Positions 4,923 to 23,005 of a stretch of 64,000 bases of DNA are shown here, in pieces. Every line of letters starts with the position of its first letter. Position 1 is the stretch's first letter. The position numbers were made by a program, and so were the translations under genes. The DNA comes from Deltaproteobacteria bacterium (GTDB lineage: Bacteria > Myxococcota > Kuafuiibacteriia > Kuafuiibacteriales > Kuafuiibacteriaceae), in assembly GCA_016703535.1 (NCBI GenBank), contig JADJBV010000002.1, positions 2,526,152 to 2,590,151 on the forward strand, read 5' to 3'. Under the pieces are notes generated by a model that ran no database searches, was not told the DNA's origin, and worked only from the letters and a program-made list of their open reading frames with translations.

Positions 4923-4949
4923 TCAACCGGGCCTGACGCTGCCCGATTG
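4923..4949 (+). promoter_or_regulatory. Candidate sigma28-type promoter of flagellin 2
   Basis: TCAA-N15-CCCGATTG, 57 nt upstream of the ATG at 5006, mirroring the element at 3162-3188. Confidence 0.55.
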
Positions 4950-5005
4950 CTGCCTTACGAACGGGGCCAAGAAGGTCCCGTGCACATCCAAGGAGGATGA
5001 ATCGT

Positions 5006-6496
5006 ATGGCTATTGGCATCAACACTAACGTCATGTCGCTGAATGCTCAGCGCCAACTCAGCCGCTCGGGCAGCGACCTTTCGGTTTCGATGGCTCGCCT
5101 CTCCAGTGGTATGCGGATCAACAGCGCGAAAGACGACGCCGCTGGTCTGGCGATCTCCAATCGCATGACCTCGCAGATCCGGGGCCTCAACCAGGCCTCG
5201 CGAAACGCGAACGACGCCATCTCACTCGCCCAGACGTCGGAAGGCGCGCTTCAGGAGAGCACCAAGTTGCTCCACCGGATGCGTGACCTCTCGGTTCAGT
5301 CGGCCAACGACTCGAACAGCGCGACCGACCGCGCCAACTTGCAGAAGGAGGTCACCCAGATCAAGGCGGAGCTGGACCGCATCGCGACCACCACTCAGTT
5401 CAACGGCAAGAAGTTGCTGGACGGGACCTTTACCGCCCAAAGCTTCCACATCGGTGCCTTCGCCAACGAGAACATCTCGCTGAGCCTCGGGAACGCCCGG
5501 AGCAGCAGCATCGGCGCCAACGTCCTGCAGCTGGACGGCGACAACGCTCAAGCGGCGGCTGCCGCTGCGGCTTTGCCGGCGGCCAACTCGGTGGCGGCGG
5601 GCGAAGACTTGACCATCTCCGGGACCTTGGGTTCGACCACGGTTGACGTGGCCGTGGGCGGCACCGCCAACGCGATCGCGGCTCAGGTCAACGCGGCCAG
5701 CGCCGGCACCGGCGTGACGGCTTCGGCGGTGACCAAGGCGCGGATCGAAGGCGTTTCGGCGACGGGCAACGTGGCGTTTTCGCTGTCGGGTTCGGGCACG
5801 GCCGCCGTCTCGGCGAACGTGGCCTCGGCCAGCGACCTCACCGACCTGGCTTCGGCCATCAACGGTGTGGCTTCGACCACGGGTGTGACCGCGGAGCTGA
5901 GCTCTGACCGGGCCAGCATCGTGCTGACCTCGTCCGAGGGCTACGACATCGGCATCGCCAACAACGGCGCCGGGTCGGGTGGTGACGCGATCGACATCGA
6001 TGTGCAGGGCCTCGACCAAGACGGCGCCGCGGCTGGCGCGGCTGTCACCTTGGCCTCGGGCGGCAACGATAGCACCCGGGTGGGTGGTTCCTTGAGCTTC
6101 TCTTCGGCGAGCAACTTTACGGTGACCTCCGCGGCGGCCGGTGCGCTGTTCGCGGCGACCACCGCCAACGCCTCGTCGTTGAGCGCGGTTTCGTCGATCG
6201 ACATCGGTACCCAGGCGGGCGCCAACAACTCGTTGGCGGTGATCGACTCGGCGATTCAGTTCATCGACGACCAGCGGGCCGACCTCGGCGCGGTTCAGAA
6301 CCGCCTCGAGTCGACCATCAGCAACCTCGACAACGTCGCCGAAAACGTCTCGGCCGCGCGGTCGCGGGTCGTCGACGCGGACTTCGCTTCGGAGACCGCA
6401 AAACTGACGCGGAACCAGATCCTGCAGCAGGCTGGCGTGGCGATGCTCGCCCAGGCCAACCAGGCTCCGCAGGTGGCTCTGTCGTTGCTCCGTTAG
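5006..6496 (+). CDS. fliC: Flagellin paralog (about 496 aa)
   Basis: Collinear with flagellin 1 along its whole length and highly similar by eye. AGGAGG lies 9 nt upstream of the ATG at 5006; the ATG at 4997 has no spacer. Confidence 0.95.
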
Positions 6497-6511
6497 TGCA
6501 TTGAGAGGGGT

Positions 6512-6536
6512 CCGGCGGGGTAGCGCGCCCCGCCGG
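6512..6536 (+). terminator. GC-rich hairpin after flagellin 2 (possible weak terminator or attenuator, no T-tract)
   Basis: CCGGCGGGG-tagcgcg-CCCCGCCGG, a 9-bp stem with a 7-nt loop, 16 nt after the TAG stop. Confidence 0.4.
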
Positions 6537-6553
6537 GCTCCGAGGTGCCGGGT

Positions 6554-6952
6554 ATGAAAACCGCGGATCTACCAACTGGCCTTCGCGCCCCTCGGCTCGA
6601 GGAGATCACCCGCCTTCAGCGGCTTCATCGAGACGAGGTCCGCCCTCATGGACTTGCTCCCCCGACCTCCGAGGTCGATCGGGAGGAGGTCGCAGTCAAA
6701 CCTACTTCGCCTCCTTCGGGCGCTGAGCTCGAGGAGGCCCTCACCACGGTCAATCAGCACCAACAGGTCGTTCAGCAGTCCCTCCAATTTGAGGTCGACG
6801 CCGATCTGGATCGAACCGTCGTCAAACTGGTCGATAGTAAGACAGGAGAAGTGGTCCGGCAGATCCCCTCCGAAGAGCTGGTGGCGATCGCCAAAAGGCT
6901 CAAGGACTCCGGGAAACCGCCGGCCGGGCTCTTGTTCGAGACGGAGGTCTGA
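6554..6952 (+). CDS. flaG: FlaG-family flagellar protein
   Basis: The C-terminal LQFEVDADLDRTVVKLVDSKTGEVVRQIPSEELVAIAKRL is typical FlaG. It sits between flagellin and fliD. The start is at 6554 (ATG) or 6545 (GTG). Confidence 0.8.
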   Translation: MKTADLPTGLRAPRLEEITRLQRLHRDEVRPHGLAPPTSEVDREEVAVKPTSPPSGAELEEALTTVNQHQQVVQQSLQFEVDADLDRTVVKLVDSKTGEVVRQIPSEELVAIAKRLKDSGKPPAGLLFETEV

Positions 6953-8355
6953 TGGTCCGCGCAACAGGATTGGGCTCTGGCTTGGACGTCGAGGGGCTGG
7001 TCACTCAGCTGATCGCCGCCGAAGCCAACCCGCAGACCGTTCGGCTGAACCGAAACGAGACGGCGTTTCAAGCCAAGATCTCGGCTTATGGCGCCCTCCG
7101 CGGGGCCTTGACCGAGTTTCAGAACGCCCTCTCCGGTTTGAAGGATCTCACCTCCCTTTCGGCCCGGAAGGTGGTGATGTCCGACGACACCCACTTCGCC
7201 GCCACCGCCGGGGAAGAGGCAGTGCCCGGCGTCTACGAGGTCGAGGTGGTGAGTTTGGCCGAACCCCATCGGCTGATGTCCACCGGCGTGGCCACTCCAG
7301 CGACGGCGGTCGGCACCGGTACTTTGACCATCACCTCGGGCGCCGAGTCTTTTGCGGTCACCGTCGGCGCCAGCAACCAGACCTTGGAGGGGATCCGGGA
7401 CGCGATCAACGCCGCCACCGACAATGACTCGGTGGACGCCACCATCATCACTGTCGACAACGGCAGCGGCGGCAGTGAGTCCCGCCTGATCTTGTCCGCT
7501 CGGGAGACTGGGACCGCAAATGCAATCCAGGTTGCGGTCACCGGCGACGGCGACGCCAACAACACCGACGCCCTGGGGCTCTCCCAGTTGTCGTACACCA
7601 CCGGCGCCCAGAACCTGACCGAACAGCAACCGGCCGTGGATGCGGTCATCGAGGTCTACGGCCAGACCGTCACCCGCAGCACCAACTCGATCGAAGACGC
7701 GATCACTGGCGTCACCTTAGATCTGAAGGAGGCCGAGGTCGGCGCAACCACCACGGTGACCATCAGCCTGGACACCGGGAAGCTCAAGGACTCGATCAAC
7801 GGCTTCGTGAAGTCGTACAACACCCTCACCGCCAACCTTCGGAACCTCTCGAAGTACGACGCGGCCACCGGCAGTAAGGGCGCCTTGTTGGGTGACAGCA
7901 CCCTGCGGGCGGTCGACTCGCGCTTGCGCCGGATGATCGGCGAGGCCGCCGACGTGGACGGGGCCTTCAAGACCCTGGCTTCGATCGGGGTGAAGGTCGA
8001 CGACAAGGGCGTCTTGTCGGTGGACGCCGACGACCTGGACGCCGCCTTGGCCTCGGACTTCGCCGACGTCGCCACCTTGTTCGGCGCCGAAGAGACCGGC
8101 CTGGGCGCACGCCTCGACGAGATGCTCGAAGGATATACTGAAGGGAAGGGCATCATCCAGGCCCGGGTGGACGGCCTGCAGGCCGGGCTCAAAGACGTGG
8201 CCGACCAACGGGTGGCCTTGGAGCGCCGCATCGAAGGATTGGAGAGCCGCTTTCGGGCCCAGTTCAACGCGATGGATCAGATCGTGTCCCAACTCAGCTC
8301 CACCTCCAGCTTCCTCGCCGGTCAGCTCGCCAGCCTGCCGGGATTCGTGCGGTAG
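6952..8355 (+). CDS. fliD: Flagellar filament cap protein FliD (HAP2)
   Basis: N-terminus GLGSGLDVEGLVTQLIAAE...AKISAYGAL and a C-terminal FliD_C-like region (RFRAQFNAMDQIVSQL). The ATG overlaps the flaG stop (TGATG). Confidence 0.92.
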   Translation: MVRATGLGSGLDVEGLVTQLIAAEANPQTVRLNRNETAFQAKISAYGALRGALTEFQNALSGLKDLTSLSARKVVMSDDTHFAATAGEEAVPGVYEVEVVSLAEPHRLMSTGVATPATAVGTGTLTITSGAESFAVTVGASNQTLEGIRDAINAATDNDSVDATIITVDNGSGGSESRLILSARETGTANAIQVAVTGDGDANNTDALGLSQLSYTTGAQNLTEQQPAVDAVIEVYGQTVTRSTNSIEDAITGVTLDLKEAEVGATTTVTISLDTGKLKDSINGFVKSYNTLTANLRNLSKYDAATGSKGALLGDSTLRAVDSRLRRMIGEAADVDGAFKTLASIGVKVDDKGVLSVDADDLDAALASDFADVATLFGAEETGLGARLDEMLEGYTEGKGIIQARVDGLQAGLKDVADQRVALERRIEGLESRFRAQFNAMDQIVSQLSSTSSFLAGQLASLPGFVR

Positions 8356-8361
8356 CCACCG

Positions 8362-8673
8362 ATGAGCGCCGAGTTGCCCCCGATCTTTCGAGAAGCCCTC
8401 TCCCTCAACGGCGTGATCCGGGAGGTCGCCAAAACCGGCGACTTCGATCAGGTGTTGCGCCTGCTGGAGGAGCGCCAAGCGATGTTGGAGGAGGCCTTCT
8501 CCTTCGGCGTCCCTCCCGAGGTGGTGCCGCTGTTGCGCGCCGAACTCGACCACCTGCGCCAAGCCGACCAAGAGCTCCTGACCCTTTTGGAAGAGGCGCG
8601 GCTGGCTCTCCGAGAGAACCAACGTTCGCTCGACTTGGAACGCCGAGCTCAAGTGGCGTACGGCCGCGTTTGA
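8362..8673 (+). CDS. Hypothetical 103-aa helical protein between fliD and fliS (possible FliT-like chaperone, by position only)
   Basis: The ORF starts 7 nt after the fliD stop. Leu/Glu-rich helical composition; no motif recognised. Confidence 0.55.
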   Translation: MSAELPPIFREALSLNGVIREVAKTGDFDQVLRLLEERQAMLEEAFSFGVPPEVVPLLRAELDHLRQADQELLTLLEEARLALRENQRSLDLERRAQVAYGRV

Positions 8674-8713
8674 ACCCGGCCCAGAACGGCCGAACTCGAT
8701 TGCTGAGCCACCC

Positions 8714-9130
8714 ATGACCAACGGTTACAAGCAGGCCTACCGCTCCAACCAATTTACGGGCATGCCCCCCGAGCGCATCACCCTGGCGCTCCTCGACGGC
8801 GCCCTCGCCGAACTCGAGCGGGCCCAAGACGCCTTCGACCACAAGGACGTCCCCCTCCGGGGTGAGTCCATCGGCCGGGCCCTGGCGATAATCTGCGAAC
8901 TCCAGAACACCCTCGACCTGGAGAAGGGCGGAGAACTCGGCCAGAACCTCCACGGGCTCTACGCCTTCATGATCCGAGAGCTCCTGCAAGCCAACTTGAA
9001 GGCCGACGCCAGCAAACTCCCGGCGGTGCAGGTGCCCCTGAGAGAGATCCGGGACGGCTGGGCCGAGATGATCGCCGCCTTGATAAGGCCGGCCTCGGTG
9101 GGCAACGCCCCGATCAAAGCCTACCTCTGA
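8714..9130 (+). CDS. fliS: Flagellin-specific chaperone FliS
   Basis: YRSNQ...TGMPPERITLALLDGAL...IGRALAIICELQNTLDLEKGGELGQNLHGLYAFM is canonical FliS. Confidence 0.9.
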   Translation: MTNGYKQAYRSNQFTGMPPERITLALLDGALAELERAQDAFDHKDVPLRGESIGRALAIICELQNTLDLEKGGELGQNLHGLYAFMIRELLQANLKADASKLPAVQVPLREIRDGWAEMIAALIRPASVGNAPIKAYL

Positions 9131-9131
9131 G

Positions 9132-9482
9132 TCAGTCGTTCCAGTAGTGCTCGAGGCGATAGGTTGCGGGGCCCGGCGCCCCATAGACCACCACGTTGAA
9201 GTTGCCGCTGAGACTCGCCTGGAAAGTGCAAGTACGGACGTTGCCGCTGGTCATGCACGAAAGGCCTGAAACTGGGCTTCCGTAGACGGTCAGAGATGCC
9301 GTGCCGCTCAGGATCGTCATCCTAATCTCGTGGGTATAGCCGGACTGAGCGCTCTGGGTATAGCTCGCCCACTGGCCATAGTGGACCGTGCAGGCGCTGC
9401 ACACGACCTTGCCACCCGCGAACACGGTCGGGCTAATGCTGAGAAGGGAGAGGAGGAGGAGTACGGGGATGAATCTCTTCAT
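9132..9482 (-). CDS. Small secreted protein (116 aa), PPC (pre-peptidase C-terminal)-like beta-sandwich
   Basis: Signal peptide MKRFIPVLLLLSLLSISPTVFA, then a TASLTVYG...GNFNVVVYGAPGPATYRLE pattern. GC and codon usage are atypical (AGA, GTA, ATT, CTT). Confidence 0.65.
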   Translation of the reverse strand: MKRFIPVLLLLSLLSISPTVFAGGKVVCSACTVHYGQWASYTQSAQSGYTHEIRMTILSGTASLTVYGSPVSGLSCMTSGNVRTCTFQASLSGNFNVVVYGAPGPATYRLEHYWND

Positions 9483-9513: not shown

Positions 9514-11456
9514 TCAAGGGAGGTCCTTCACGATGATGAGGGGACTCGATGAAGAGTAAGCTCCTGAGTCGGCCTCCACCTCGAAGTCGACTGTCGCCCA
9601 TTCGGTGTCGGTGGAGCTGAAAGGAAGCTCCTCCACCTTAATCGGGTCGGCGTAGAAGAGAGCCTCTTCATTCACCACCAGGTCGATGATCTTCTTGTCC
9701 TGGTTGAACGGCTTGATCACGATGGTGGGTTTTCTCAGCTTGCCCGCGTAATCGCGGTTGAGGTTCAGGTACGCCGCGAACACCTCCATCGGGCAGGTCG
9801 GACAGGCGATGCCGTCGGGCTGGGGCGTCGAGAAGGGCCGGGCGTGGTGGTTTTCGAGTTGGCTGGCGGGGCAGTCGTGGGTGCTGAGAGGGTCCAGGGA
9901 GTAGTATTGCCCGACGCAGGGGGCGAGGGCGGCGACCGGCTGAACGACGGGCTGGGTGCACTCCAGCGGTTGAATGCTCTGGGTGGTGATGTCCGGTCGA
10001 GCGTCCCGGAAGGCGCTGGACTTGGTGCATTGGGGGTTCGTGCTGGCGCCGAGCTGCTGCAGCTTCTTGAGCGTCCCGCAGATCGAGACCCGGGCCACGT
10101 TATTGTTGCAGTCGGGGGCGACGCAGAGCTCCCGCGTCAGTTCGACGCTCCGCCCGGGGAGCAGCACCCCGGCCTCCCTCACCAGCTTCATGACGTCGTG
10201 GGCGCCTTGGTTCGGTTTGTAGCGCCAGGCGATGGCCGCAGCGGCCGAGGCTACCGCCGACGCGACCGAACTTCCGGTGAAGACATCGGTGATCTCAGCG
10301 GCGCCATTGGAGATGCTGATGTGGCTGGCGGGGGCCACCAAAGGGGGCCGGCTCAGGGGTCGACGGTTTGGCAGCTCGGTGTCGCGTCCGTCGACACCGC
10401 CAACGGCGTAGACGATCCGCTGGTATGAGGTCGTGGGGACCGGAAGGGTCACGCCCGGGGCCAACGCCGAGCACTGGGCGACGGTCGGTGCGGCCTTGGC
10501 CTCCCACGCGCCGGGGTGGGAGGGGCCCATCGATGGGTTCGGGCCGTCGACTGAGTTGCCCGAAGCAGCGACGACCAAGGCGCCCTGGCAAACGGCGAGG
10601 CTGATCGCGGTGTAAATCGCTCGAATCGGGGGGATAGTTGATGGAGATCGTCGGCAGGGAAGTTGCCTCCGTAACGGGCCCCGTCCCACCCGACGCTCAG
10701 GTTCAGGACGGTCTTCCCGGGTTGGGTGGCGGCCGTGGCCATGGCTTGGTGGATCGCCAGGGCGAGGTCTCCGAAGCTCCCAAAACGCCCGCCGGTTGGA
10801 TCCCGGACGAGGCCGGTGGCCGACCTAATCAAGGGCAGAGCGAGGGTGTTGGCCACCTCCGCCGCGCAGGTTGGGCTCCCCGGGGGGCACGCCAGCTGAC
10901 GGACGATCATGCCGACCATCTTGCCGTGTTCGATCAGACCCTCGGCGGGGAACGGAAAACCGGTCTGTTCGGAGGAGTCGACGACCACCACCTTGGTCGG
11001 GGGCTGGCCGAGTGAGTTCGGCGTGGGCGTGGGGAGCGGGGCGACCGAGTCGACTTGGGCGCGAAAGGCGGCCTCCAACGCCGCCTGGTTCTCCATCGTC
11101 AGCTCCGTGGCGTGTGGAGTCACCACTGCGCAGTCGAGCTTCGGGGAGTCCAGGCCGAATCCCCAAGTCGGGAGCTTGGCGATCGCTGGCGGTCCGGAGC
11201 CGTACCAGGTGAACACGCAGTAGTTGGCGAGGTCGCCAGAGATGTCGCCATTGAAGAGGGGTTCGACGTGCCAAGCGCTATTCGGGATGGGAACGCAGGA
11301 CGATCGCTGAGGGGCGAAGCCGATGTAGCGGTCACCTTCGCAGGTCGCTAGCGGTGGATCGGCCATGGCGGTTCTGGCGGCCAGGCTGAAGCAGCCGAGC
11401 CCGAACAACCACAGCGGGGAGCGGAGAGGTCGATTGAGGATCATCGTTGTGGACAT
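9514..11456 (-). pseudogene. Subtilisin-like (S8) serine protease, reading frame broken at a G6/C6 run near 10628-10633
   Basis: ORF 10449..11483 carries the signal peptide, Asp (VVVVDS), His (EHGKMVG) and NLSVGW. ORF 9514..10689 carries Asn (VVAASGNS) and Ser (FTGSSVASAVAS). One extra C in the run would join ...DLHQLSP to PIRAIYTAISLAV.... Confidence 0.8.
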
Positions 11457-11505
11457 ATGAGGTGAGGGCCTGGTCCCTGACATGGGTGGGTGAAGGTTTC
11501 GTGGG

Positions 11506-14184
11506 CTATGGTGTAACTATTCGAAAGGACTGCCAATCCTCCGTGGATGCTTCTTCGGCGAGGCTCGCCACTGCGGCTTGGTAGGCGCGATCGATCGGGG
11601 CCGTCGGGGTCCGGTAGAGCGCCTCCACGAACCGCCGGGCCAGGCGGTCGGGGACCGGTCGGCTCGGGCCTACGATCCAACTCGCGCCCGCCAAGGCGAA
11701 GGCCTCGGCCAGGGCCACTTGGGGCGCCGTGCCCTCTCCCGGACCGGTCCCTTCGCAGCTCGAGAGGACGACGGTGGCCGGCGCTCGCGGTAAGGTCAGC
11801 AACTCTCCAGCGGTGAGGGACTGCGCGCCGGCGAGGAGGAGGGCGCTCTCCAGGCCCCCAGTGCTGTCCGTGACGCTATGGCCGGCGTAGTGGAGGTGAG
11901 AAGTCTGGGAGAGGGCTGCGAGCAGAGCGCTGCGGGTGGCCGAGGCGCCCGAGAGGAGCAGCACGGGACCCGACGCCTTGAGCCGATCGTTGAGCCAACG
12001 GCCCTCGTCCCTGGCCTCTGGCAGGTCTTCCCGAGGATCGACCGCGATCAGCGCGTTGCCTGAAACCGCTGCGCCAGCCTCAAGGCCTCCATCGACCGCG
12101 TAGCTCACGAGGTGCGTTGCAATAAGGGCCTGGCCCCGCCAAGGGGCGGCGTGGAGGTCCTTGGCGGCGAGGGGGCCGTCGAGGAGCAACTCGACGTGTT
12201 GGGTTCCAGAGAGCTCCTCCGAAAATGGCTCCAACAAGGCTCGCCCCAGGCCTGGAGGCGTGAAGTCCTCCGGAGCCAGCTCGACCCACGAGCACCGGGC
12301 GGCAGAGCGGGTCTGTGCACACGCCAGGTACCGCCTCGCGCTCTCCGCCGAATAGAGGAGAACCAAGCGGTCCGGTGGGAGCACCCCTGAAGCTTTGGCC
12401 CTCCCAGGCCTCACGATGGTCAAGGCGTTCTCCAGGAGGCCTCGCCGGGTGCGCAGAGCCGTCGCCTGCGCTTCGGCGGTCCGGGGCAACCGCTCACTTG
12501 CCGCGCCCCAGGAGGCGTCGAGGGCGGACTCCATGTTCCGCGTCGCGAGTCGATACTCCTCGACGACCGCGGCCCACCGAGCCCGGTCTTCAGGCGGCAA
12601 CGCTTCCAGGCGCGCCGTGGTGACGAGGACATCGTGCCTCTGAGCTCGCGCTTCCCGCGCGACGTTCATCGCGTCTTGGGCCCGGCCCTCCGAAAAGAGC
12701 AGCCTGATCTCTGCCCACGTCGCGCGTCGCCGCGAGGAGAGAAAGGAGGCGCGGCCCCCATCAAGGGCAAGGGCCACCGACTCGTCGCGGAGCACGGCGG
12801 CTGCGCTTCGATAGGCGGCGCGGGCCTCCTCCTTCCGTCCCAGGGGCGTCAGGGCGCTGGCGCGTCCGACCAGGGTGCGCCACACGGCCGAGGGGCTCGT
12901 ACCTCCCGCCTCTTGAGCCATGGTGTCGTAGCGTTCCAGGGCCTGCCCGGGTTGGCCTCGGGCCAGGGCTAGGCCGGCTTCCAGTTCCCTTAGCCACAAG
13001 CGGCGCTCGAGGGTGGCCTCGGCACCCAGCTGGCGGGCCTCTCGCAGTTGGGTCTCTGCGGCCGGGAGGTCGCCGGCCAGCAGTAGGAGGAGACCAAGGT
13101 TGATCGCGCTGTTCCCGGCCTGGTCCCGATCTGGGCAGGAGCGCCTGAACAAATCCTGCGCGGCGCGACCGGTCTCGATGGCTCGAGCCAGGGCTGCTTC
13201 TGTCCGCTCGTCATCGACGATCGACAGCCAAGTCAAGCCGCGCAAAACAGTCGCCTCGTTACATGGGTGCCTGAGCGTCATGTCGTGGTTGCGAAGACCC
13301 TCTAGGATGCGGCGCTGCTCTTGGTACCTGCCCTGGTCACCGAGGATGCGTCCTTCAAGAAGGGCTGCAGCCCAGTCGGTCTTGGCGCGCTCGACCCGCG
13401 ACGTCACTGCGCGCACGGACCTTATCGCGGTTTGGGCGGAACGAAGGTCGCCAGTGCGCATCGCTAGTGCGGCACGGTAATAGCGGTGGTGGATCGCGCC
13501 GAGAGTATCCTCCGGTAGTTGCACCGCCTCGACCTCGTTGAGGATCCGATCGGCCATCTTTAGGTCCCGGTCTCCGTCCACTGCCGTCTGGGCAATCGAG
13601 AGCTGTTCATTCACAGCGCGGGCGACTAGCCCTGCGCCCTTGGCGACCTCAACCGCCCGACCCCACTTCTCTCGGGCCTCATCGATCTCGCCTCGTCTCC
13701 CGTGAGCCGCGCCCAACTGCTTGAGGGCCTCCGCTGCTTCTCTCGGCTCCTTCGACTCCTTCAGCACCTCCCACTTCTCTTTGGCCTCGGCCTCTTTGCC
13801 TTCGCTCTGGAGGCGTTCGGCCTCTTTCATCAGCTCGGACTTTTCGTGGAGCTCGAGGGGCCAGCGGCGGCTGTCGATGCCTTTTCGGCGGGCCTCGATG
13901 ATCACCGCGCCGGCGGTGGCGGTGGCGATGAAGCGGGTTCGGTAGCCGTCTTCGTAGGGGTGGAACTTGACCGGCGAGGGGCCGTGGTCGGTCTTGATCG
14001 AGAGCTGGGCGCCTTCTTTGACCTTCACCCAGATCACAAGTTTGGTGGGGCCGTCGATCTCGCAGATCGGGCCCTTTCGGAGGTCCCGGCAGCCGACGAG
14101 CTCCAGGGTCTCGATCAGGTCCTCGGGCTTGGGTTGGCAGGCCGAGGTCAGGAGGACGAGCAATGGCCAGGGGGAGCGGCGCAT
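11506..14184 (-). CDS. TPR-repeat CHAT-domain (caspase-like) lipoprotein, 892 aa
   Basis: Lipobox MRRSPWPLLVLLTSAC, a long Ala/Leu/Arg-rich TPR-like middle, and a C-terminal CHAT dyad (HLHYAGHS and VVLSSCEG, followed by AFALAGASWIVG). Confidence 0.85.
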   Translation of the reverse strand: MRRSPWPLLVLLTSACQPKPEDLIETLELVGCRDLRKGPICEIDGPTKLVIWVKVKEGAQLSIKTDHGPSPVKFHPYEDGYRTRFIATATAGAVIIEARRKGIDSRRWPLELHEKSELMKEAERLQSEGKEAEAKEKWEVLKESKEPREAAEALKQLGAAHGRRGEIDEAREKWGRAVEVAKGAGLVARAVNEQLSIAQTAVDGDRDLKMADRILNEVEAVQLPEDTLGAIHHRYYRAALAMRTGDLRSAQTAIRSVRAVTSRVERAKTDWAAALLEGRILGDQGRYQEQRRILEGLRNHDMTLRHPCNEATVLRGLTWLSIVDDERTEAALARAIETGRAAQDLFRRSCPDRDQAGNSAINLGLLLLLAGDLPAAETQLREARQLGAEATLERRLWLRELEAGLALARGQPGQALERYDTMAQEAGGTSPSAVWRTLVGRASALTPLGRKEEARAAYRSAAAVLRDESVALALDGGRASFLSSRRRATWAEIRLLFSEGRAQDAMNVAREARAQRHDVLVTTARLEALPPEDRARWAAVVEEYRLATRNMESALDASWGAASERLPRTAEAQATALRTRRGLLENALTIVRPGRAKASGVLPPDRLVLLYSAESARRYLACAQTRSAARCSWVELAPEDFTPPGLGRALLEPFSEELSGTQHVELLLDGPLAAKDLHAAPWRGQALIATHLVSYAVDGGLEAGAAVSGNALIAVDPREDLPEARDEGRWLNDRLKASGPVLLLSGASATRSALLAALSQTSHLHYAGHSVTDSTGGLESALLLAGAQSLTAGELLTLPRAPATVVLSSCEGTGPGEGTAPQVALAEAFALAGASWIVGPSRPVPDRLARRFVEALYRTPTAPIDRAYQAAVASLAEEASTEDWQSFRIVTP

Positions 14185-14229
14185 TCGGCCCCATAGAAGC
14201 GCGAACGCCCCCCGGAGCCAACCCGCCGT

Positions 14230-14940
14230 TCAGCGCGGGCGGACGATCAACTTCACGCTCTTCGACTGCTGGTCAGCGTGGAGCCCGTCGGGGGCCTCGG
14301 GCAGCTGGCCAGGGCGGCCAACGACCATCACCACGGTGACCGTCCCGGTCTCGACCCCCAACAGCTGGGCCGGGGTGCCACGCCAACGAAGGGCGCCGTC
14401 GGGGGAGATCTCGGGCGCGGCGGCGATCACCCTGACCGTTGTTCCCTCCTCGAGGAACAGCCGCCCGGCCAACGCACCTTCGGCCGGTTGATCCGGGACC
14501 AACACCAGCTCGATGCGTGAGTCGGAGCGCACCGTCGGGGCCCGGGGCAGGTCTTCACTCCGGTACAAGGCGTCTTGGACCTGGGCGTTGACGGCATAGC
14601 TCGGCAACGGCGCGTAACGATCGGTCATCGCAAAGATCCCGATCATGATCGCGGCGGCCAAGGCCAACAGGCTGCCGACGATCGGCGCCTTCCGGAAGGG
14701 GAGGGTCCGAACCTCGGCCAAACTCCGCTCTGCGATCCGATCTTGGGTGGCCTCGCTGAGGGGCGCGTAGAGCTCCAGCGCTTCGGCCAACTTTGGGTCG
14801 ACGGCCGATCGGGCCAACAGTGCTTGTCGGGCCTCAGGGGACAGGCGACCCGAGGCATAGGCCTCCAGCTCGGCGTCCAAGGCTTGATCTTGTTCCGCCA
14901 TCAGCTGTGCCACTTCTTTCGGCAGCAGGTCATCGGCCAT
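14230..14940 (-). CDS. Single-pass anti-sigma factor (putative)
   Basis: The start at 14940 overlaps the sigma stop by 11 nt. It has an N-terminal helical cytoplasmic part, one TM segment (IVGSLLALAAAIMIGIFAM) and a C-terminal exported domain of about 120 aa. There is no Zn-binding HxxxCxxC. Confidence 0.7.
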   Translation of the reverse strand: MADDLLPKEVAQLMAEQDQALDAELEAYASGRLSPEARQALLARSAVDPKLAEALELYAPLSEATQDRIAERSLAEVRTLPFRKAPIVGSLLALAAAIMIGIFAMTDRYAPLPSYAVNAQVQDALYRSEDLPRAPTVRSDSRIELVLVPDQPAEGALAGRLFLEEGTTVRVIAAAPEISPDGALRWRGTPAQLLGVETGTVTVVMVVGRPGQLPEAPDGLHADQQSKSVKLIVRPR

Positions 14941-15589
14941 GAGCGTCCTCCGTGGCCAGTTCGTCTCTGAGCTCTCGGACCAATCGGGAGAGGCGGCTCC
15001 GCCAGGCGTAAAGGGCGTCCGGTGAAGTCCCGGTACTTTGGGAGACCACATCAACTGATTGGTCCTCTATGTATAGAAGTTGAAAGAACTGACGTCCCTT
15101 CGGGCTGAGGCGCTCCCGGAGGCGGTCCGCCAGCTGCGCCAGAAGCTCTCGGGAGGCGACCAGCTCTTCGTGGCTGGCCGAGCTGCCCCCCAAACGAACG
15201 ATGGTGTCGGTGAGGGTGGGATCTTCGGTCCAGGGGTTGCGCTTGCCGGTGCGCATGATCATCCCTACCTCGCGCTCGGCCAAAAATCCGACAAAACGTT
15301 CGAAGGAGAGCCCCCGGGCCTGATCCCAGGCCAACAGCGCCCGTCCCTGGTGCGCCAGCAGCGCCGCGAAGACCTCCTGCATCAGGTCCTCCAGCTCTTG
15401 CCGGGTGTTCCGGCCCCGGGAAGAGCTGGCCCTCCGCAACAAGGTCCTCGCCACTCGCGTTTGAATGACGGGCGTCAGCGCCGCCACCAGCCCGCGCATC
15501 GCCGGTTCGTCGCCCGCCAAGGCCCGCTTCAAGTGGGCTTTGATCGTGTCCTCGGACGCAGACGACAACTCCAAGACCTCGGCGCGCAT
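14930..15589 (-). CDS. ECF-type RNA polymerase sigma-70 family factor
   Basis: 219 aa. Region 2-like LMQEVFAALLAH...FERFVGFLAERE and region 4 HTH LSPKGRQFFQLLYIEDQSVDVVSQSTGTSPDALYAWRSRL. The upstream part of ORF 14930..16387 is a GC artefact overlapping the astacin gene. Confidence 0.85.
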   Translation of the reverse strand: MRAEVLELSSASEDTIKAHLKRALAGDEPAMRGLVAALTPVIQTRVARTLLRRASSSRGRNTRQELEDLMQEVFAALLAHQGRALLAWDQARGLSFERFVGFLAEREVGMIMRTGKRNPWTEDPTLTDTIVRLGGSSASHEELVASRELLAQLADRLRERLSPKGRQFFQLLYIEDQSVDVVSQSTGTSPDALYAWRSRLSRLVRELRDELATEDAHGR

Positions 15590-15711
15590 CCACCGCTGAA
15601 CATAAGGGTGCCCGATCGACTCCGCAACTCGCGCGCCGAGGATTTCGCGTGTTGTCCGAGGGATGTCAGATCCTACCGATGGTCCGCATATCAGTGAAGA
15701 CCGAGCTCCAT

Positions 15712-17343
15712 TCAGTGGAGCAGTTGCGCCTCCAGGCTGCACCACGGGGCGTTGCTCTGCCAGTCGGTGCCCAAAAACTGCCCCGATTCGCTGGCCAGAT
15801 CGACCCACTTCAGGCCGCTCTCCACGTGGTGGCAGACCCAGTCGTCGCGCCCGTCGTTGTTGACATCCCCCACGAACAAGCGGGACCCGCCGCTGGTGCA
15901 CCAGTTGTTGGCGACGGCCCAGTTGGATCCGCCGAACTCGCCGTCCAGGTTGGCGTAGTCCAGGTGTTTGTCGCCGGTGCGCGGGTCGTAGCAAAACAGA
16001 TCGTCTCGTCCGTCGCCGTTGTAGTCGCCGACGATGATGGTCCGCGTTTCGGCGCCATTGCACCAGCCGCCGGCCCGGGTCCAGTCGTAGCCGCCGAACT
16101 CCCCGCTGGCGTCGGCGTAGTCGATGCCTTGGCTGCCGGTCGCGAAGTCGTGGCAGTAGAGGTCGGCCCGCTGGTCGCCATTGAAGTCGCCCACGAACAC
16201 CCGCTGGCGGTCTTCGTTGCAGAAGCTGGCGTTGGCGCGGCTCCAGTTGGTCCCGCTGAACTCTCCATTGGCGCCCGCGTAGTCGATGAACTGAGCGCCG
16301 CTGATGAAGTCGTAGCAGAGCAGGTCCTCTCGCCCATCGCCGTCGTAGTCGCCGATCAAAAGTTGCCGGGTGTCGCTGGCGGTGCACCAGGCCGCGCTGC
16401 TCGACCAGTCGGTGCCGCCGAAGGTGCCGCTGTTGTTGGCCCGGTCCACGAAGCGGGCGCCGCTCAGCTGATCAAAACACAGAAGATCGGTCCGATCGTC
16501 GCCGTTGAAGTCGCCGGTGAAGAGCAACCTCCCTTCGGTGGTGTTGCACCAGCCGCTGGGGCTGACCCAGTCGCTGCCGTTGAACTGTCCGCTCCCAAAA
16601 GCGCGATCCAAATACAAGGTGCCGCTCGAGGTGTGGTGACAGAGGAGGTCCACCTTGCCGTCCAAGTTGAAGTCCCGGAGGTGAGGATCGTCGGCGTTGG
16701 GCGGCCCATACAGCCGTTCGGTGCCGACCCGATCGGTGGCGCTGAGTTGGCTGGCGTTGGCGCAGTAGCCCATGATCGAGTCGAAGTCGTAGGGCCCAAA
16801 GACGTGGGTGCTGTCGGGGCCGAGAAGATCTCCCGGGCACACCTCGGGGCTGTCCCAACGTTGATGTTCATGCCCGTAGCCCAAGACGTGACCGAACTCG
16901 TGGAGGGTGGAGGCCACGATGCAGGCCCTCCGATCCAAATTGTTGGCCGTGCAGCGCGGCCGCCACTCGTGCACGTTGTCGTTGAAGTCTACGTACACTT
17001 CCGTCAGTGGCCCGCCGTCGTAAGCGGCGCTGTACGCTCCGCCGATCTCGATGACCACGCCCTGGGCGCCCGGAGCACATTCACCCCAGCCGACGAAGTT
17101 GAGGTTGGCGCTCCGCATCCAAGAGCGTTGACCTCGCAGCGCCTCTCGGACCCAGCCCTTTTCGGTCGCGTAACCTGCGGTCAACCAACACACCGGGATC
17201 TCGCGTTCCGTCCGGAGGATGGCCGCCTCGTAAAAGAGGTCCTGGGCCGAGGTCCCCAGGGGCTCGGGGCTGGGCGAGGCGTCGGGCCCGCAAGCCCAGA
17301 GCAGGGTCAGGGGCCAAAGGGCCCAGCGGGGGAGCAGCTTCAT
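15712..17343 (-). CDS. Astacin-like (M12A-type) zinc metalloprotease lipoprotein fused to a six-repeat FG-GAP/VCBS-like beta-propeller
   Basis: Lipobox LTLLWAC; HEFGHVLGYGHEHQR (HExxHxxGxxHE) plus a SIMGY Met-turn. Six repeats of about 49 aa follow, each with GD(F/Y)NGDGRxDL(L/F)C and a W..x..WC. Confidence 0.85.
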   Translation of the reverse strand: MKLLPRWALWPLTLLWACGPDASPSPEPLGTSAQDLFYEAAILRTEREIPVCWLTAGYATEKGWVREALRGQRSWMRSANLNFVGWGECAPGAQGVVIEIGGAYSAAYDGGPLTEVYVDFNDNVHEWRPRCTANNLDRRACIVASTLHEFGHVLGYGHEHQRWDSPEVCPGDLLGPDSTHVFGPYDFDSIMGYCANASQLSATDRVGTERLYGPPNADDPHLRDFNLDGKVDLLCHHTSSGTLYLDRAFGSGQFNGSDWVSPSGWCNTTEGRLLFTGDFNGDDRTDLLCFDQLSGARFVDRANNSGTFGGTDWSSSAAWCTASDTRQLLIGDYDGDGREDLLCYDFISGAQFIDYAGANGEFSGTNWSRANASFCNEDRQRVFVGDFNGDQRADLYCHDFATGSQGIDYADASGEFGGYDWTRAGGWCNGAETRTIIVGDYNGDGRDDLFCYDPRTGDKHLDYANLDGEFGGSNWAVANNWCTSGGSRLFVGDVNNDGRDDWVCHHVESGLKWVDLASESGQFLGTDWQSNAPWCSLEAQLLH

Positions 17344-17533
17344 GCCCCTCCTTCGCCGCGCGGGCGGGAGATCTGACCCGAGGGCCTGCGGTGTCCAGGT
17401 AGCACCAAGTGGGAGCGACCTTCCGCCCCGGTAACGCGGCGGCGCCAAAAGCCCCAACAATTCGTTGGAACCCGAGTTGCGACAGGAAACGCCCAACGGT
17501 GGGGCCCGCTTATCGGCCTCCCAGAGGATCTCC

Positions 17534-19582
17534 ATGACCCAAGCCCGCGCGTTTCGCCCCGAAGACATCCGCAACATCGTCCTGCTCGGCCACGGAGGTT
17601 CGGGCAAGACCACCCTCGCCGAGGCCATCCTGCACAAGACCCACACCATCACCCGCATGGGTTCGGTCGACGACGCCTCCTCGGTCAGCGACTTCGAACC
17701 CGAGGCCAAGGCCCGGCATCACTCCACCAGCTCGACCGTACTTTTTGCGCACCACGAAAAGCGCGAGATCAACATCATCGACACCCCGGGCCACCCCGAG
17801 TTCATCGGCGCGCCCCTTTCGGCCCTCACCGCCGTCGAGACCGCGGTGATCGTGGTCGGCGCCACCACCGGCATCGAGCTCAACACCCGCCGACTCTTTC
17901 ACGCGGCAGGTGAAGCGGGCTTGGCCCGGATGATCGTCATCAACAAGATCGACTTGGCCAAGACCTCCCTCGAGGCCCGAGTGGCCGAACTCAAGGAGGC
18001 CTTCGGCGATCGCCTGCACTGCATCAACCTCCCCAGCCAAGACGGCACCGACGTCATCGACTGTTTCGACAAAGAGGGTGGGCAGGCCGACTTCGGTTCG
18101 GTCGAAGCGATCCATCGGGAGATGGTCGAGGCCACGGTGGAGGTCGACGACGCGGCCCTCGAGAAGTACCTGAGCGAAGGGAAGATCGATCTCGCCGAGC
18201 TGAAGAAGACCTTCATCCGGGCCATGAGCCTTGGCCAGGTGGTGCCGGTCTTGTTCACCAACGCCAAGGCCGGCGTCGGCGTGGAAGATCTGCTGCACAT
18301 CTTGGTGGAGGAGGCCCCCAGCCCCGTCAGCGGTCGGCCGCGGCGGCTCAAGAAGGGCGACACCTTGGTCGAGCTCGCCTGTGATCCGGACCAGCCGTTT
18401 TTGGCGCAGGTCTTCAAGGTGGCCAACGATCCGCACCTGGGCGCCCTCGCGATGTTGCGAGTGCTGCAGGGCAAGATGGACGGCAGCACGCCGTTCATCG
18501 CGGGGGACGAGGGCAAGGCCAAAAAGGCCAACCACGTGCTCAAGGTCGAGGGTCGTGATCATCCCGAGCTGGAGGCGGTGGCCCAGGCCGGCGACATCGT
18601 GGCCATCGCCCGGGCCGAAGACGTCCACGTTGGGCAGCTGCTCCGAGATCCTTCGATCCCGCCGGGCTTCGCGGCCTTGCCGATGGCCGCGCCCGTCCCG
18701 ATGTTGTCGTTGGCCATCGCCGCCAAGAAGAAAAACGACGAGGTGAAGTTGGGCGCAGCGGTGCAGAAGATCCTGGAAGAGGATCCAACCCTGAAGGCGA
18801 CCCAAGATCCGGTCAGCCACGAGCTGGTGTTGAGCGGCATCGGCGACGTGCACCTGGCGGTGGCCCTGGAGCGCCTCAAGAACCGCTTCCACCTGGAGGT
18901 GGAGTCGAAGCGGCCCAAGGTCGCCTACAAAGAGACGGTGCTGGGCCGGGCCGAGGGCCACTACCGCCACAAGAAGCAGACCGGCGGCGCTGGACAGTTC
19001 GCCGAGGTCTACCTGCGGATCGAACCGCTCAAGCGCGGTGAGGGGCGGGTCTTCGCCAGCGAGGTCTTCGGCGGCGCCATCCCGACCCACTTCATCTCGG
19101 CGGTGGAGAAGGGTGTGGAGGATGGCCTCAACGAAGGCGCCTTGGCCGGCTTCCCGGTGCAGGACGTGAAGGTGGTGGTCTACGACGGCAAGTCCCACGC
19201 CGTCGACAGCAAGGACATCGCCTTTCGGACCGCCGGGAAGTTTGCGGTGCGGGACGCCTTGCAGAAGGCTCGGCCGGTGTTGCTCGAGCCGATCGTCTCC
19301 TTGGAGATCACCGTGCCCGAGCAGTTTTTGGGCGACGTCACCGCCGATCTCAAGCACGTGCGGGCCAGGCTTTTTGGCGTCGAGCCCGCCCAAGCGGGGC
19401 ACAGCCTGATCCACGCCGAAGCGCCGATGGCCGAGCTGGGCAACTACGCCAGCCAACTCCGGAGCCTCACCGGTGGCCAAGGCAACTTCACCATCGCGCC
19501 GGCCCACGAGGACTTCGTGCCCCTGCCGCTGCAGCAGAAGATCGTCGCCAGCCGACCCCAAAGTGGCGGGTCCGAGGTCTGA
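17534..19582 (+). CDS. Elongation factor G paralog (divergent G1 motif)
   Basis: NIVLLGHGGSGKTTLAEAIL, DTPGHPEF, NKID, and domains II-V recognisable to the end. ATG at 17534. Confidence 0.85.
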   Translation: MTQARAFRPEDIRNIVLLGHGGSGKTTLAEAILHKTHTITRMGSVDDASSVSDFEPEAKARHHSTSSTVLFAHHEKREINIIDTPGHPEFIGAPLSALTAVETAVIVVGATTGIELNTRRLFHAAGEAGLARMIVINKIDLAKTSLEARVAELKEAFGDRLHCINLPSQDGTDVIDCFDKEGGQADFGSVEAIHREMVEATVEVDDAALEKYLSEGKIDLAELKKTFIRAMSLGQVVPVLFTNAKAGVGVEDLLHILVEEAPSPVSGRPRRLKKGDTLVELACDPDQPFLAQVFKVANDPHLGALAMLRVLQGKMDGSTPFIAGDEGKAKKANHVLKVEGRDHPELEAVAQAGDIVAIARAEDVHVGQLLRDPSIPPGFAALPMAAPVPMLSLAIAAKKKNDEVKLGAAVQKILEEDPTLKATQDPVSHELVLSGIGDVHLAVALERLKNRFHLEVESKRPKVAYKETVLGRAEGHYRHKKQTGGAGQFAEVYLRIEPLKRGEGRVFASEVFGGAIPTHFISAVEKGVEDGLNEGALAGFPVQDVKVVVYDGKSHAVDSKDIAFRTAGKFAVRDALQKARPVLLEPIVSLEITVPEQFLGDVTADLKHVRARLFGVEPAQAGHSLIHAEAPMAELGNYASQLRSLTGGQGNFTIAPAHEDFVPLPLQQKIVASRPQSGGSEV

Positions 19583-21317: not shown

Positions 21318-22940
21318 TCAGGGCCTGAGGCCGAGCCACTTTTGTTGGGCCCTCTGCTCGAGGTGGCGGGTCAACTCCATGATCCGCCGGTGGCCTGGAT
21401 TGGCCGCCATTTGGGCCTTGATCCGGGTGTAGTCCCGGGCCACCAAGCTGCTGCGGCCCACCCAACGATCCAAGGTCCGGAGGGCCAGATCTTGTTCGGC
21501 CGGGGACAGGTACAGGATCTCCGCCAGGTGGGTGAGGCCCGGCGCCGTCAGGTTGAAGGTGTCGTTGTTGGGGCCCAAGGTGATTCGGCCCCCGGTCCAA
21601 GGATCCCACTCGCCGTAGATCGCCAACACCCGCTCGGCCCGGGTCCGGAGGCGCTGGTCGACGTTGCGCATGGTCGTTGGATCCAAGGACGGCTCTTGGC
21701 CCCAAGGGTTGGGCGTGAGCGGCGCGGGCGGGAGGGCGTCGAAGTCGACGCCGATCAAGGCCTGTTGCAGCTCGGCCAGGAAGTCGACCGATGGTCCCCC
21801 CAGCTCCCGAGCGACTTGGTAGTAGTAGGGGTTGAGTTCGGGGTCATAGGCCCCCTGCTCGAAGTAGGCCTCGGGCGAAAACGGGAAGATGCTGGCCAGG
21901 TCCTCGATGCCCAGGCCCCGGGGCGGGAGTTGGGTGCACAACTCGGGGCTCGCCGAATACTGCCAAAAGCCCCAGCGCCAGCCGAGGGCGGGGTAGAAGC
22001 TGAGGATCTCCAGGGCCTCTAGGCTGTAGTTGTTGGCCCGAGGATCCGTGGCCAGGTGGTATTCGGCCAACTCCGCCCGTCGCTCCACGGTCTCCCGCTC
22101 CAGGTCGACGATCCGCTCCCGGCAGGCGCCGTCGCTGGGCCCGATCTGGGCCAAGAAGGCGGCGTAGCGGGTGTCGAGCCCGAAGCTGATCGGCGCCACG
22201 TAGGGCACGATCCCGGCGAGATCTTGCGGGTGGTAGTGGTGGTGGAAGATGGCGGTCATCCCGCCTTTGCTGTAGCCCGAGCCGATCCAAGGCCCGCCGT
22301 AGATCGCGCTCAACAGCGTGACGATCCGGTGCGAGTCGGCGGCCGATTGGACCACGGTCAGGAAGTCCCACCTCGGAGACGCAGCGATCGACTCGCCGAA
22401 GAAGCGGTGTTCGACGGTCAGTTGATTGGCCTGGAGCGCCACGGTCGGTTCGATCTCCGAGGACGTAAACTCCATCGGATTGCCGAAGAGGCCGTAGCCG
22501 GTGGTGTGGAGGACCATCGGCGCCGTTTCACTGCGGTGGATCAAGACCAACCGTTGATCGAAGGTCGGCCCTTGGGGATCGTTGTGGTCTTCGGGTTGGC
22601 GAAAACGGAGGAGGAAGGCCCGGGTGCCCGGCAAGCTAGCTTGCACTTCCTGGACCCTTAGCCCCGGGATCCCGCGCAGGGCCTGGAGGATGTCCCTCGG
22701 CGGTGGAGGTTCGGCGTCCAGGATCCCCATCTCCGGGACGCCTCGATCCCTGACCCCCCGATCACGGGCGGGACCGGCGTCCGGAATCAAGAACCCGTTG
22801 TCGGTGAACTCTTCGGGGCCTCCGTCGGTGGGGCCGAAGATCGGCGCCCACGGGCCCCCGAGGCCCAAGCCCCCGACCTCGGCCTCTCCACACGCGAGCA
22901 GGGACCCGGTCAAGAGGAGGGCCGACCACCGAGGGGACAT
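21318..22940 (-). CDS. Secreted alpha/beta-hydrolase serine peptidase, S37 (PS-10 tripeptidyl aminopeptidase)-like lipoprotein
   Basis: Lipobox LLLTGSLLAC and nucleophile elbow GSGYSKGGMTA. The family assignment is from memory only. Confidence 0.6.
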   Translation of the reverse strand: MSPRWSALLLTGSLLACGEAEVGGLGLGGPWAPIFGPTDGGPEEFTDNGFLIPDAGPARDRGVRDRGVPEMGILDAEPPPPRDILQALRGIPGLRVQEVQASLPGTRAFLLRFRQPEDHNDPQGPTFDQRLVLIHRSETAPMVLHTTGYGLFGNPMEFTSSEIEPTVALQANQLTVEHRFFGESIAASPRWDFLTVVQSAADSHRIVTLLSAIYGGPWIGSGYSKGGMTAIFHHHYHPQDLAGIVPYVAPISFGLDTRYAAFLAQIGPSDGACRERIVDLERETVERRAELAEYHLATDPRANNYSLEALEILSFYPALGWRWGFWQYSASPELCTQLPPRGLGIEDLASIFPFSPEAYFEQGAYDPELNPYYYQVARELGGPSVDFLAELQQALIGVDFDALPPAPLTPNPWGQEPSLDPTTMRNVDQRLRTRAERVLAIYGEWDPWTGGRITLGPNNDTFNLTAPGLTHLAEILYLSPAEQDLALRTLDRWVGRSSLVARDYTRIKAQMAANPGHRRIMELTRHLEQRAQQKWLGLRP

Positions 22941-23005
22941 CCCTCGAGTGTACCCAGAGCGGGTCGGCGCTGACCAGACCAAGCCCGGCCGGGTCAGCGG
23001 TCAGG

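Follow-up and report, generated by a model that had tools for sequence, protein, structure and literature searches.

Gene organization of the locus

We analyzed a 64,000-nucleotide (nt) stretch of contig JADJBV010000002.1 from a Deltaproteobacteria bacterium (hereafter, the window) that encodes an extracytoplasmic function (ECF)-type sigma factor, a candidate transmembrane anti-sigma factor, a predicted lipoprotein combining tetratricopeptide repeats (TPRs) with a caspase-like CHAT domain, an exported subtilase of peptidase family S8, and a small exported protein. All of these genes lay on the minus strand (Table 1). The sigma and anti-sigma genes overlapped by 11 nt, the start codon of the latter lying ahead of the stop codon of the former (CATGGCCGATGA); an intergenic gap of 45 nt separated the anti-sigma stop codon from the CHAT gene, whose first base was the 46th after that stop, and the S8 gene began 22 nt downstream of the CHAT gene. 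The overlap and the 46-nt spacing had been described in the initial annotation of this DNA, which proved accurate on both counts; it missed the S8 subtilase after CHAT and did not recognize that the CHAT body and S8 are hypervariable among alleles.

Table 1. Coordinates of the sigma/anti-sigma/TPR-CHAT cassette and its neighbors in the window
Feature	Coordinates	Strand	Description
ECF-type sigma factor (predicted)	15589..14930 (ATG 15589, TGA 14932..14930)	-	219 aa; sigma-2 and sigma-4 regions only
Anti-sigma candidate	14940..14230 (ATG 14940, stop 14232..14230)	-	236 aa, single-pass
TPR-CHAT lipoprotein (predicted)	14184..11506 (ATG 14184, stop 11508..11506)	-	892 aa
Exported S8 subtilase	11483..9514	-	overlapping open reading frames (ORFs) 11483..10449 and 10689..9514; Pfam Peptidase_S8
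Small exported Cys-containing protein	9482..9132	-	116 aa; without Pfam match
Hypervariable replaceable segment	13734..9131	-	CHAT residues ~151-892, S8 gene, and small ORF; both flanks conserved
Intergenic region 5' of the sigma gene	15590..15711	-	122 nt; presumed promoter region
M12-like/FG-GAP protein, upstream of the sigma gene	15712..17709	-	exported; weak astacin/M12-like zinc-protease motif
Flagellin, FliD, and FliS, downstream of the cassette	4937..9130	+	flagellin 519 aa with Flagellin_IN motif
Peptidase_S37 (PS-10) family protein	21318..23000	-	few kb from the cassette
956-aa ORF adjoining the Peptidase_S37 gene	23006..25876	-	without Pfam match

The product of the first gene is, as judged from profile comparisons, a divergent ECF-type (group 4) sigma factor. 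Weak matches, all below curated cut-offs, were obtained to Pfam Sigma70_r2 (residues 47-99) and r4_2 (residues 155-199), as well as to the NCBIfam models sigma70-ECF (residues 50-209) and ShbA, and a profile of six sigma orthologs aligned over its full length with the solved ECF sigma factor 9isn_F (E = 2e-9). In the 122-nt region upstream of the gene, a consensus scan for sigma-70 promoters and terminators found no sigma-70 site and was otherwise uninformative. Inspection by eye revealed a TTGCGG-N17-TATGTT element conserved upstream of the sigma gene in close relatives, which may represent its promoter.

The candidate anti-sigma factor

The second gene encodes a candidate anti-sigma factor, assigned from its position, topology, predicted fold, and family-level similarity. 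The protein contained no cysteine and a single histidine, which is located near the C-terminus; with the HxxxCxxC ligands absent, a zinc-binding anti-sigma factor was rejected. One hydrophobic transmembrane (TM) helix was found at about residues 85-108, preceded by basic residues (Arg/Lys) and followed by a C-terminal domain of ~128 aa. Both the lack of the HxxxCxxC motif and an exported C-terminal domain of about 120 aa had been noted in the initial annotation and were confirmed here.

An AlphaFold2 (AF2) model built on an alignment of 82 sequences (predicted local distance difference test, pLDDT, 88.4) placed four N-terminal cytoplasmic helices at residues 5-29, 35-47, 49-57, and 63-77 ahead of the TM helix, which spanned residues 87-108 in the model, and a periplasmic immunoglobulin (Ig)-like beta-sandwich at residues 115-234. 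This modeled topology corresponds to that of class I anti-sigma factors, in which an N-terminal bundle of three to four helices precedes the TM helix. Foldseek searches with the model returned generic Ig-like folds alone and no match to an anti-sigma domain. Just outside the membrane, the protein carries the juxtamembrane motif PLPSY (residues 111-115), in which Leu112, Pro113, and Tyr115 were invariant in six-sequence alignments; the larger alignment of 82 sequences showed at least 90% conservation of Pro113 and Tyr115.

Among the 82 relatives of the protein, 18 matched the NCBIfam model NF052375 "anti-sigma factor" (best E = 1e-5), six matched PRK13920, and seven matched zf-HC2 weakly; five non-fused family representatives that were scanned showed no Pfam domain. 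Word-indexed homolog searches returned just four to five proteins, and an exhaustive profile search was needed to recover the family, which comprised 2515 representatives at 50% identity with E <= 1e-3 and 1281 with E <= 1e-10. Of the 150 representatives listed, almost all had lengths of 218-300 aa. The Ig-like ectodomain of this family was also found in 20 tandem copies in a protein of 5026 aa (P0132), which argues that it is a mobile, repeatable beta-sandwich that is not specific to anti-sigma factors.

The TPR-CHAT lipoprotein

The N-terminus of the CHAT protein reads MRRSPWPLLVLLTSAC and contains Cys16 (codon 14139..14137), which directly follows a signal peptide with the lipobox MRRSPWPLLVLLTSA. 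Cys16 was at least 90% conserved in a 17-sequence alignment, and the strict lipobox pattern was present in 42 of 60 CHAT relatives, most of the others being lipobox-like. These features predict an exported lipoprotein. Cys32, Cys41, and Cys350 were also conserved in the CHAT relatives, and the lipobox together with the conserved Cys pairs points to a periplasmic, oxidizing location.

The match to the CHAT family PF12770 reached E = 7e-21 (75 bits against a cut-off of 24 bits). The AF2 model (pLDDT 86.4; predicted template modeling score, pTM, 0.78) consisted of a beta-sandwich (residues 24-112), helical repeats (residues 117-591), and the CHAT domain (residues 606-892), which bears the catalytic motifs HYAGH(769)S and LSSC(810)EG (codons 11880..11878 for His769 and 11757..11755 for Cys810). 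His765, Gly768, His769, Cys810, and Asp846 did not vary in any of 68 related CHAT proteins from two phyla. Foldseek ranked the Myxococcus xanthus protein DdvA (8rw5/8rot_A; E = 3e-14) as the top match of the model, ahead of the craspase subunit Csx29 and separase, and the best non-TPR match of the CHAT family profile was likewise DdvA (8rot_B; E = 1.7e-10). As judged from these matches, the domain has the CHAT/clan CD caspase-like fold with a His/Cys dyad and is a putative protease. Of the features that the initial annotation had reported for this protein, the lipobox was recovered at Cys16, the TPR-like scaffold of about 500 aa as a repeat region of ~475 aa, and the intact dyad as His769/Cys810.

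Conservation of the linkage across genomes

We surveyed one genome per GTDB species with the sigma factor alone as query. This search found 99 sigma relatives, of which the best 80 loci (40-58% identity) were kept and scanned with custom hidden Markov models for the anti-sigma factor, CHAT, and S8. A homolog of the anti-sigma ectodomain directly followed the sigma gene in 71 of the 80 loci, and a CHAT gene of the same subfamily lay within 10 kb in 60; in two further loci, the CHAT gene was cut off by the contig end. Because 60 of 80 loci selected by the sigma factor alone carried CHAT, the linkage of the three genes is not attributable to chance. An ECF subgroup that normally occurs without CHAT neighbors, which had been put forward as evidence against a functional connection, is not what the survey found.

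The CHAT gene was co-directional and located just after the anti-sigma gene in 42 of these 60 loci, divergent in 10, upstream of the sigma gene in five, and convergent in three. The S8 gene was present in 39 of the 60 loci and missing from 21, including all 10 divergent-type loci; among the co-directional loci, 37 of 42 had it directly after CHAT. Within Acidobacteriota (Thermoanaerobaculia and Holophagales), 25 of 25 loci carried CHAT and 24 carried S8; the other 55 loci, mostly from Myxococcota, included 35 with CHAT. Look-ups anchored on CHAT placed the sigma pair adjacent to it or within ~3 kb in seven of nine distinct contexts, and in three of these (L005, L006, and L008) the same cassette was embedded in unrelated flanks. 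Two Sorangium-type CHAT paralogs stood alone without the sigma pair. All-versus-all clustering of the remaining ORFs of the 80 loci gave no fifth conserved gene; kinases (13 loci) and histidine-kinase-like proteins (11 loci) belong to common paralogous families. Inspection of the ORFs in loci without CHAT gave no consistent substitute for it.

Two variant arrangements were observed in this survey. In the divergent subtype (L019, L020, L024, L026, L040, L044, L065, L081, and L082), there was no S8 gene, and about six loci carried a putative lipoprotein gene between CHAT and sigma (a 339-aa stop-to-stop ORF in L026); this recurrent lipoprotein may be an alternative accessory component. In a metagenome-assembled genome (MAG; L009, 4788..11351), two sigma/anti-sigma pairs flanked a single CHAT gene, which suggests a local duplication of the transducer.

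Natural fusions of the anti-sigma and TPR-CHAT proteins

A single ORF of 1174 aa in a Haliangium MAG (L042, 10618-14142) joined the whole anti-sigma protein to the whole CHAT protein, and an unrelated protein of 1193 aa (P0157) was likewise an anti-sigma::TPR-CHAT fusion. The order of domains in the fusions was N-terminal helices, TM helix, PLPTY motif with the Ig-like domain, beta-sandwich, TPRs, and CHAT. A hydrophilic linker replaced the lipoprotein signal in both proteins, which contained no lipobox; this would be expected of genuine fusions and not of products of a lost stop codon. The existence of such fusions indicates that the anti-sigma and TPR-CHAT proteins are on the periplasmic face and work together. 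The proposal of the initial annotation that sigma, anti-sigma, and CHAT form one conserved functional unit thus gains support from both the linkage and the two fusions.

Allelic replacement of the putative sensor/protease part

The two S8 ORFs of the window (344 and 391 aa) aligned end to end with intact homologs of 616-647 aa. The frameshift between them arises from the loss of 1 nt in a homopolymer at 10628..10633, which reads G6 on the plus strand where the homologs need seven; the homologous reading across this site, which lies between the Asn and Ser regions, is LSPPIRAIY. Either the assembly is in error at this homopolymer or the gene has recently become a pseudogene. The S8 catalytic Asp, His, Asn (oxyanion), and Ser residues were at least 95% conserved in 41 homologs, and the Pfam scores were above the cut-off.

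We compared the window with the metagenomic contigs L090, L089, and L002, which are very close relatives of each other. Among these three, identity was 99% for the DNA of the downstream flank and 91-93% for the DNA upstream of a breakpoint (through CHAT codon ~150), and the proteins were 99-100% (sigma), 96-97% (anti-sigma), and 99% (CHAT residues 1-155) identical, while the rest of CHAT was 35-52% and S8 47-66% identical. Between L090 and L002, the CHAT gene differed at just 2 of its first 450 nt (448 identical), after which identity fell abruptly to ~50%. The window is slightly more distant, with flanks at ~85-87% DNA identity to the three contigs, and carries an L090-type cassette (84-89% protein identity); against L002, it showed 86% DNA identity down to position 13711, no blastn match between 13711 and 9131, and 87% thereafter. 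The 5' breakpoint was sharp at CHAT codon ~150, and the 3' boundary coincided with the FliS stop codon. All alleles of this ~4.6-kb segment retained the catalytic residues.

The small exported protein had a 57% identical homolog at the same position in L090 (9608..9898), was absent from L002, L089, and L001, and was thus present only with the window/L090 allele type; it was far less conserved than the neighboring genes. The G+C content at third codon positions (GC3) was 0.77 for the CHAT body, 0.87 for the constant CHAT N-terminus, and 0.81-0.84 for S8, and this difference was too small to decide on a foreign origin of the variable segment by composition. The overall pattern combines a constant N-terminus, a fixed in-gene crossover, and a variable body swapped together with the next gene, and these are the hallmarks of specificity being switched by recombination under diversifying selection. 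A constant transducer would then comprise the sigma and anti-sigma factors and the N-terminal part of the lipoprotein (lipobox, beta-sandwich, and first helical hairpin), and the TPR-CHAT body and S8 would form a matched, variable recognition unit.

Genomic neighborhood of the cassette

The G+C content of the window was 62-69% per 2 kb and mostly ~66%, and a search for an additional copy of the module in the window found none. The M12-like/FG-GAP protein upstream of the sigma gene contains many FG-GAP repeats, and its gene has internal repeats of 65-70% DNA identity; this gene was confined to close relatives, with 78-93% amino acid identity among L090, L089, and L002. With this protein and the Peptidase_S37 protein, exported proteases are abundant around the cassette. 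Flagellar genes adjoin the cassette on the other side, and the organisms related by the cassette are mostly labeled Myxococcota, which are usually regarded as non-flagellated.

Comparison with known systems

DdvA of M. xanthus is a transmembrane anti-sigma factor whose periplasmic domain is a TPR-CHAT module (PMC6061681, 2018; PMC11506125, 2024). The 2018 study suggested that its CHAT and TPR modules orchestrate inactivation of the anti-sigma factor by proteolysis (PMC6061681), and the cryo-electron microscopy study of 2024 proposed CHAT autoproteolysis as the site-1 step; removal of TPR-CHAT exposes DdvA to RseP, and the DdvA active site was described as incomplete and resting (PMC11506125). 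The window module resembles DdvS/DdvA in combining an ECF sigma factor, a single-pass anti-sigma factor, and a periplasmic TPR-CHAT domain with a His/Cys dyad in Myxococcota, and the same site-1 protease hypothesis applies to it.

The two systems differ in several respects. DdvA (PDB IDs: 8ROT/8RW5) is the best fold match of the window CHAT, but sequence identity is just 17-18%. DdvA is one polypeptide comprising a zinc-binding anti-sigma domain, a TM helix, and TPR-CHAT, whereas the corresponding parts of the window module are encoded by two genes separated by a stop codon and the 45-nt gap, with a lipoprotein signal of their own on the second; split polypeptides and the lack of a CHCC/HxxxCxxC zinc site place the module outside the DdvA type. 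The window anti-sigma protein has an Ig-like ectodomain, of which the published description of DdvA makes no mention, and the window CHAT protein has an N-terminal beta-sandwich, in contrast to the helical stem, midrib, and tip scaffold of DdvA. The fusions L042 and P0157 also appear to lack the zinc motif and have extra beta domains compared with DdvA. Moreover, the window family is usually accompanied by an S8 subtilase, reaches Acidobacteriota, and does not adjoin an island of the cyclic oligonucleotide-based antiphage signaling system (CBASS) or of clustered regularly interspaced short palindromic repeats (CRISPR). We found no meaningful PADLOC matches and no CBASS or CRISPR genes near the cassette, and a DdvS-like defense-island regulon at this locus was therefore not supported. 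These comparisons suggest that the window module is an in-trans (split) counterpart of DdvS/DdvA and plausibly works like DdvA.

ECF54 of Actinobacteria has no anti-sigma factor, and carboxypeptidase, subtilase, and CHAT genes occur in its context (PMC8999054). As judged from this published description, the window family shares with ECF54, a group for which proteolytic control has been proposed (PMC8999054; PMC7826278), the subtilase and CHAT-domain context and is distinguished from it by the actinobacterial hosts of ECF54 and by the carboxypeptidase and 4Fe-4S protein in the ECF54 context; the ECF classification itself makes no reference to CHAT in its main text (PMC7826278). The anti-sigma-like gene, found in 71 of 80 loci with hosts from Myxococcota and Acidobacteriota, argues against identity of the window family with the published ECF54.

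Craspase (Cas7-11 with Csx29) and separase have the same TPR-CHAT architecture with a caspase-like dyad, and Foldseek matched them at E = 1e-11 to 1e-13. An ECF-type sigma factor is controlled in the craspase system by Csx30, the substrate of the CHAT protease. Both enzymes are cytoplasmic (nuclear in eukaryotes) and RNA-activated or securin-controlled, whereas the window CHAT protein is predicted to be exported and lipid-anchored, with no CRISPR genes nearby. A type III-E CRISPR craspase was rejected, as Cas7-11 (gRAMP) and Csx30/Csx31 were absent from the neighborhood in the window, the 80 loci had no additional conserved neighbor, and there were no meaningful PADLOC matches. The module also resembles RseA/DegS/RseP, RsiW/PrsW/RasP, and FpvR/Prc, in which the ectodomain of a single-pass anti-sigma factor is removed before site-2 cleavage. 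Site-1 cleavage in this canonical regulated intramembrane proteolysis is carried out by PDZ serine proteases or PrsW-type metalloproteases; the candidate in the window is instead a cysteine protease of clan CD, alone or together with a subtilase, from the same operon.

CdiA-CT/CdiI, Rhs toxins, and the TraA alleles of M. xanthus are polymorphic systems with C-terminal cassettes. They resemble the window locus in the constant N-terminus, the sharp in-gene boundary, and the variable C-terminus swapped with the next gene in near-clonal strains. In contrast to these systems, all alleles of the locus keep the TPR-CHAT and S8 architecture with intact catalytic residues, and there was no sign of a toxin/immunity pair.

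A caspase-like gate on an anti-sigma factor is thus not new in principle. The initial annotation had considered such a gate encoded in cis to be mechanistically new, which does not hold in view of the precedent of DdvA (PMC6061681; PMC11506125), for which it was already proposed, and of the ECF54 context (PMC8999054). In the literature searched, we found no description of a split lipoprotein form of TPR-CHAT with a subtilase; this form, its breadth over two phyla, and its allele swapping are new.

Proposed mechanism and alternative explanations

We propose that the sigma factor, anti-sigma factor, TPR-CHAT lipoprotein, and S8 subtilase constitute a four-gene envelope signaling cassette that would operate as an in-trans, DdvA-like switch, with TPR-CHAT as the site-1 protease acting on the anti-sigma factor; we give this model slightly less than even credence. 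The constant N-terminal beta-sandwich of the lipoprotein would dock on the anti-sigma ectodomain, and the variable TPR superhelix would bind a protein cue, either external or consisting of the co-varying S8 protease or its product. Binding of the cue would activate His769/Cys810, which would clip the anti-sigma ectodomain or the juxtamembrane segment, and an RseP-type site-2 protease together with cytoplasmic proteases would then release the sigma factor to its presumed regulon. A constant transducer with a variable sensor fits the allele comparison, in which the body and S8 are swapped but identity remains at 96-100% for sigma, anti-sigma, and CHAT residues 1-150.

Several observations weigh against this model. 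The genes that follow an ECF pair are often its targets and not its regulators. At least seven sigma/anti-sigma loci lacked CHAT in the 8.8-10 kb of sequence on both sides, which shows that the pair also occurs without CHAT as a neighbor. The anti-sigma factor does not co-vary with the TPR-CHAT body, as would be expected if the body recognized it, and none of the anti-sigma models in Pfam, NCBIfam, or PDB was matched significantly by the window anti-sigma protein. Enumeration of gapped 5+4 and 4+4 k-mers in 80 non-redundant regions upstream of sigma genes, compared with shuffled sequences, gave no common motif above background. Finally, CHAT cleavage is unproven even for DdvA, the validation of which awaits discovery of the phage signal (PMC11506125).

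The most substantial of the alternatives, which we still regard as unlikely, is that CHAT and S8 are outputs: the sigma pair would sense another signal through the Ig-like domain and switch on two exported proteases for predation, competition, or surface remodeling, and an arms race between the proteases and their substrates would account for the hypervariability. The position of both genes downstream in the same apparent operon, as is common for ECF targets, the loci that lack CHAT, the extreme allelic divergence typical of effector proteins, and the other exported proteases nearby all agree with this explanation, and regulators and targets are not separable by context alone according to the authors of the ECF classification (PMC7826278). 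However, the natural fusions place TPR-CHAT on the anti-sigma polypeptide, as in DdvA, the linkage is retained when CHAT is divergent or convergent, and an envelope-anchored lipoprotein with a 475-aa TPR scaffold resembles a receptor more than a secreted degradative enzyme.

Two further explanations keep the signaling role and reassign the proteolytic step. S8 might itself be the site-1 protease in a proteolytic cascade, in which CHAT matures pro-S8 or restrains it in a separase/securin-like manner, or in which S8 activates CHAT. Site-1 cleavage is usually the task of serine proteases such as DegS and Prc, S8 has conserved catalytic residues, it regularly follows CHAT directly (37 of 42 co-directional loci) and occurs in 24 of 25 Acidobacteriota loci, and its replacement together with the TPR-CHAT body as one cassette suggests that the two must match. 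An essential S8 is nevertheless difficult to reconcile with its absence from a third of the CHAT-carrying loci (21 of 60, including the entire divergent type) and with the frameshifted S8 of the window, which, if real, would mean that the module persists without S8; as the invariant CHAT dyad moreover places CHAT catalysis itself under selection, we consider this cascade improbable. Alternatively, TPR-CHAT could be a non-proteolytic, RseB-like co-anti-sigma factor, a shield on the ectodomain that blocks RseP or another protease until it is displaced by a ligand. In DdvA, the bulky TPR-CHAT indeed protects against RseP and the active site is described as incomplete and resting (PMC11506125), and the window CHAT domain, at ~287 aa, is close in size to the 290 aa of DdvA; this explanation is highly improbable in our judgment, as the invariance of His765, His769, Cys810, and Asp846 in all 68 proteins is hard to explain without catalysis.

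Implications of the polymorphic cassette

The site-1 model described above can be extended to a polymorphic envelope receptor, a proposal that we regard as quite unlikely at present. The TPR-CHAT body and its matched S8, possibly with small accessory proteins, would be interchangeable specificity alleles brought onto a constant transducer by homologous recombination at a fixed position in the CHAT gene, and a strain-specific proteinaceous cue would lead through caspase-like cleavage to the ECF response. If this proposal is true, the cue could be, for example, a phage component, a protein of a competitor, or a kin-specific signal derived from S8.

The family is large and crosses two phyla, and its anti-sigma component has no Pfam family. 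Among the carriers are the isolate records Plesiocystis pacifica SIR-1, Enhygromyxa salina DSM 15201, and Nannocystaceae ST9. In the split module, the protease and its substrate would be on separate polypeptides, which could be purified, mixed, and mutated independently. The swapping of the TPR-CHAT body and S8 between flanks that are ~99% identical points to strong diversifying selection on what is recognized, and the replacement of these alleles bears on how bacteria sense threats outside the cytoplasm. If the receptor is indeed polymorphic, the cassette would represent a bacterial form of allele-diversified, protease-based pattern recognition in Myxococcota and Acidobacteriota.

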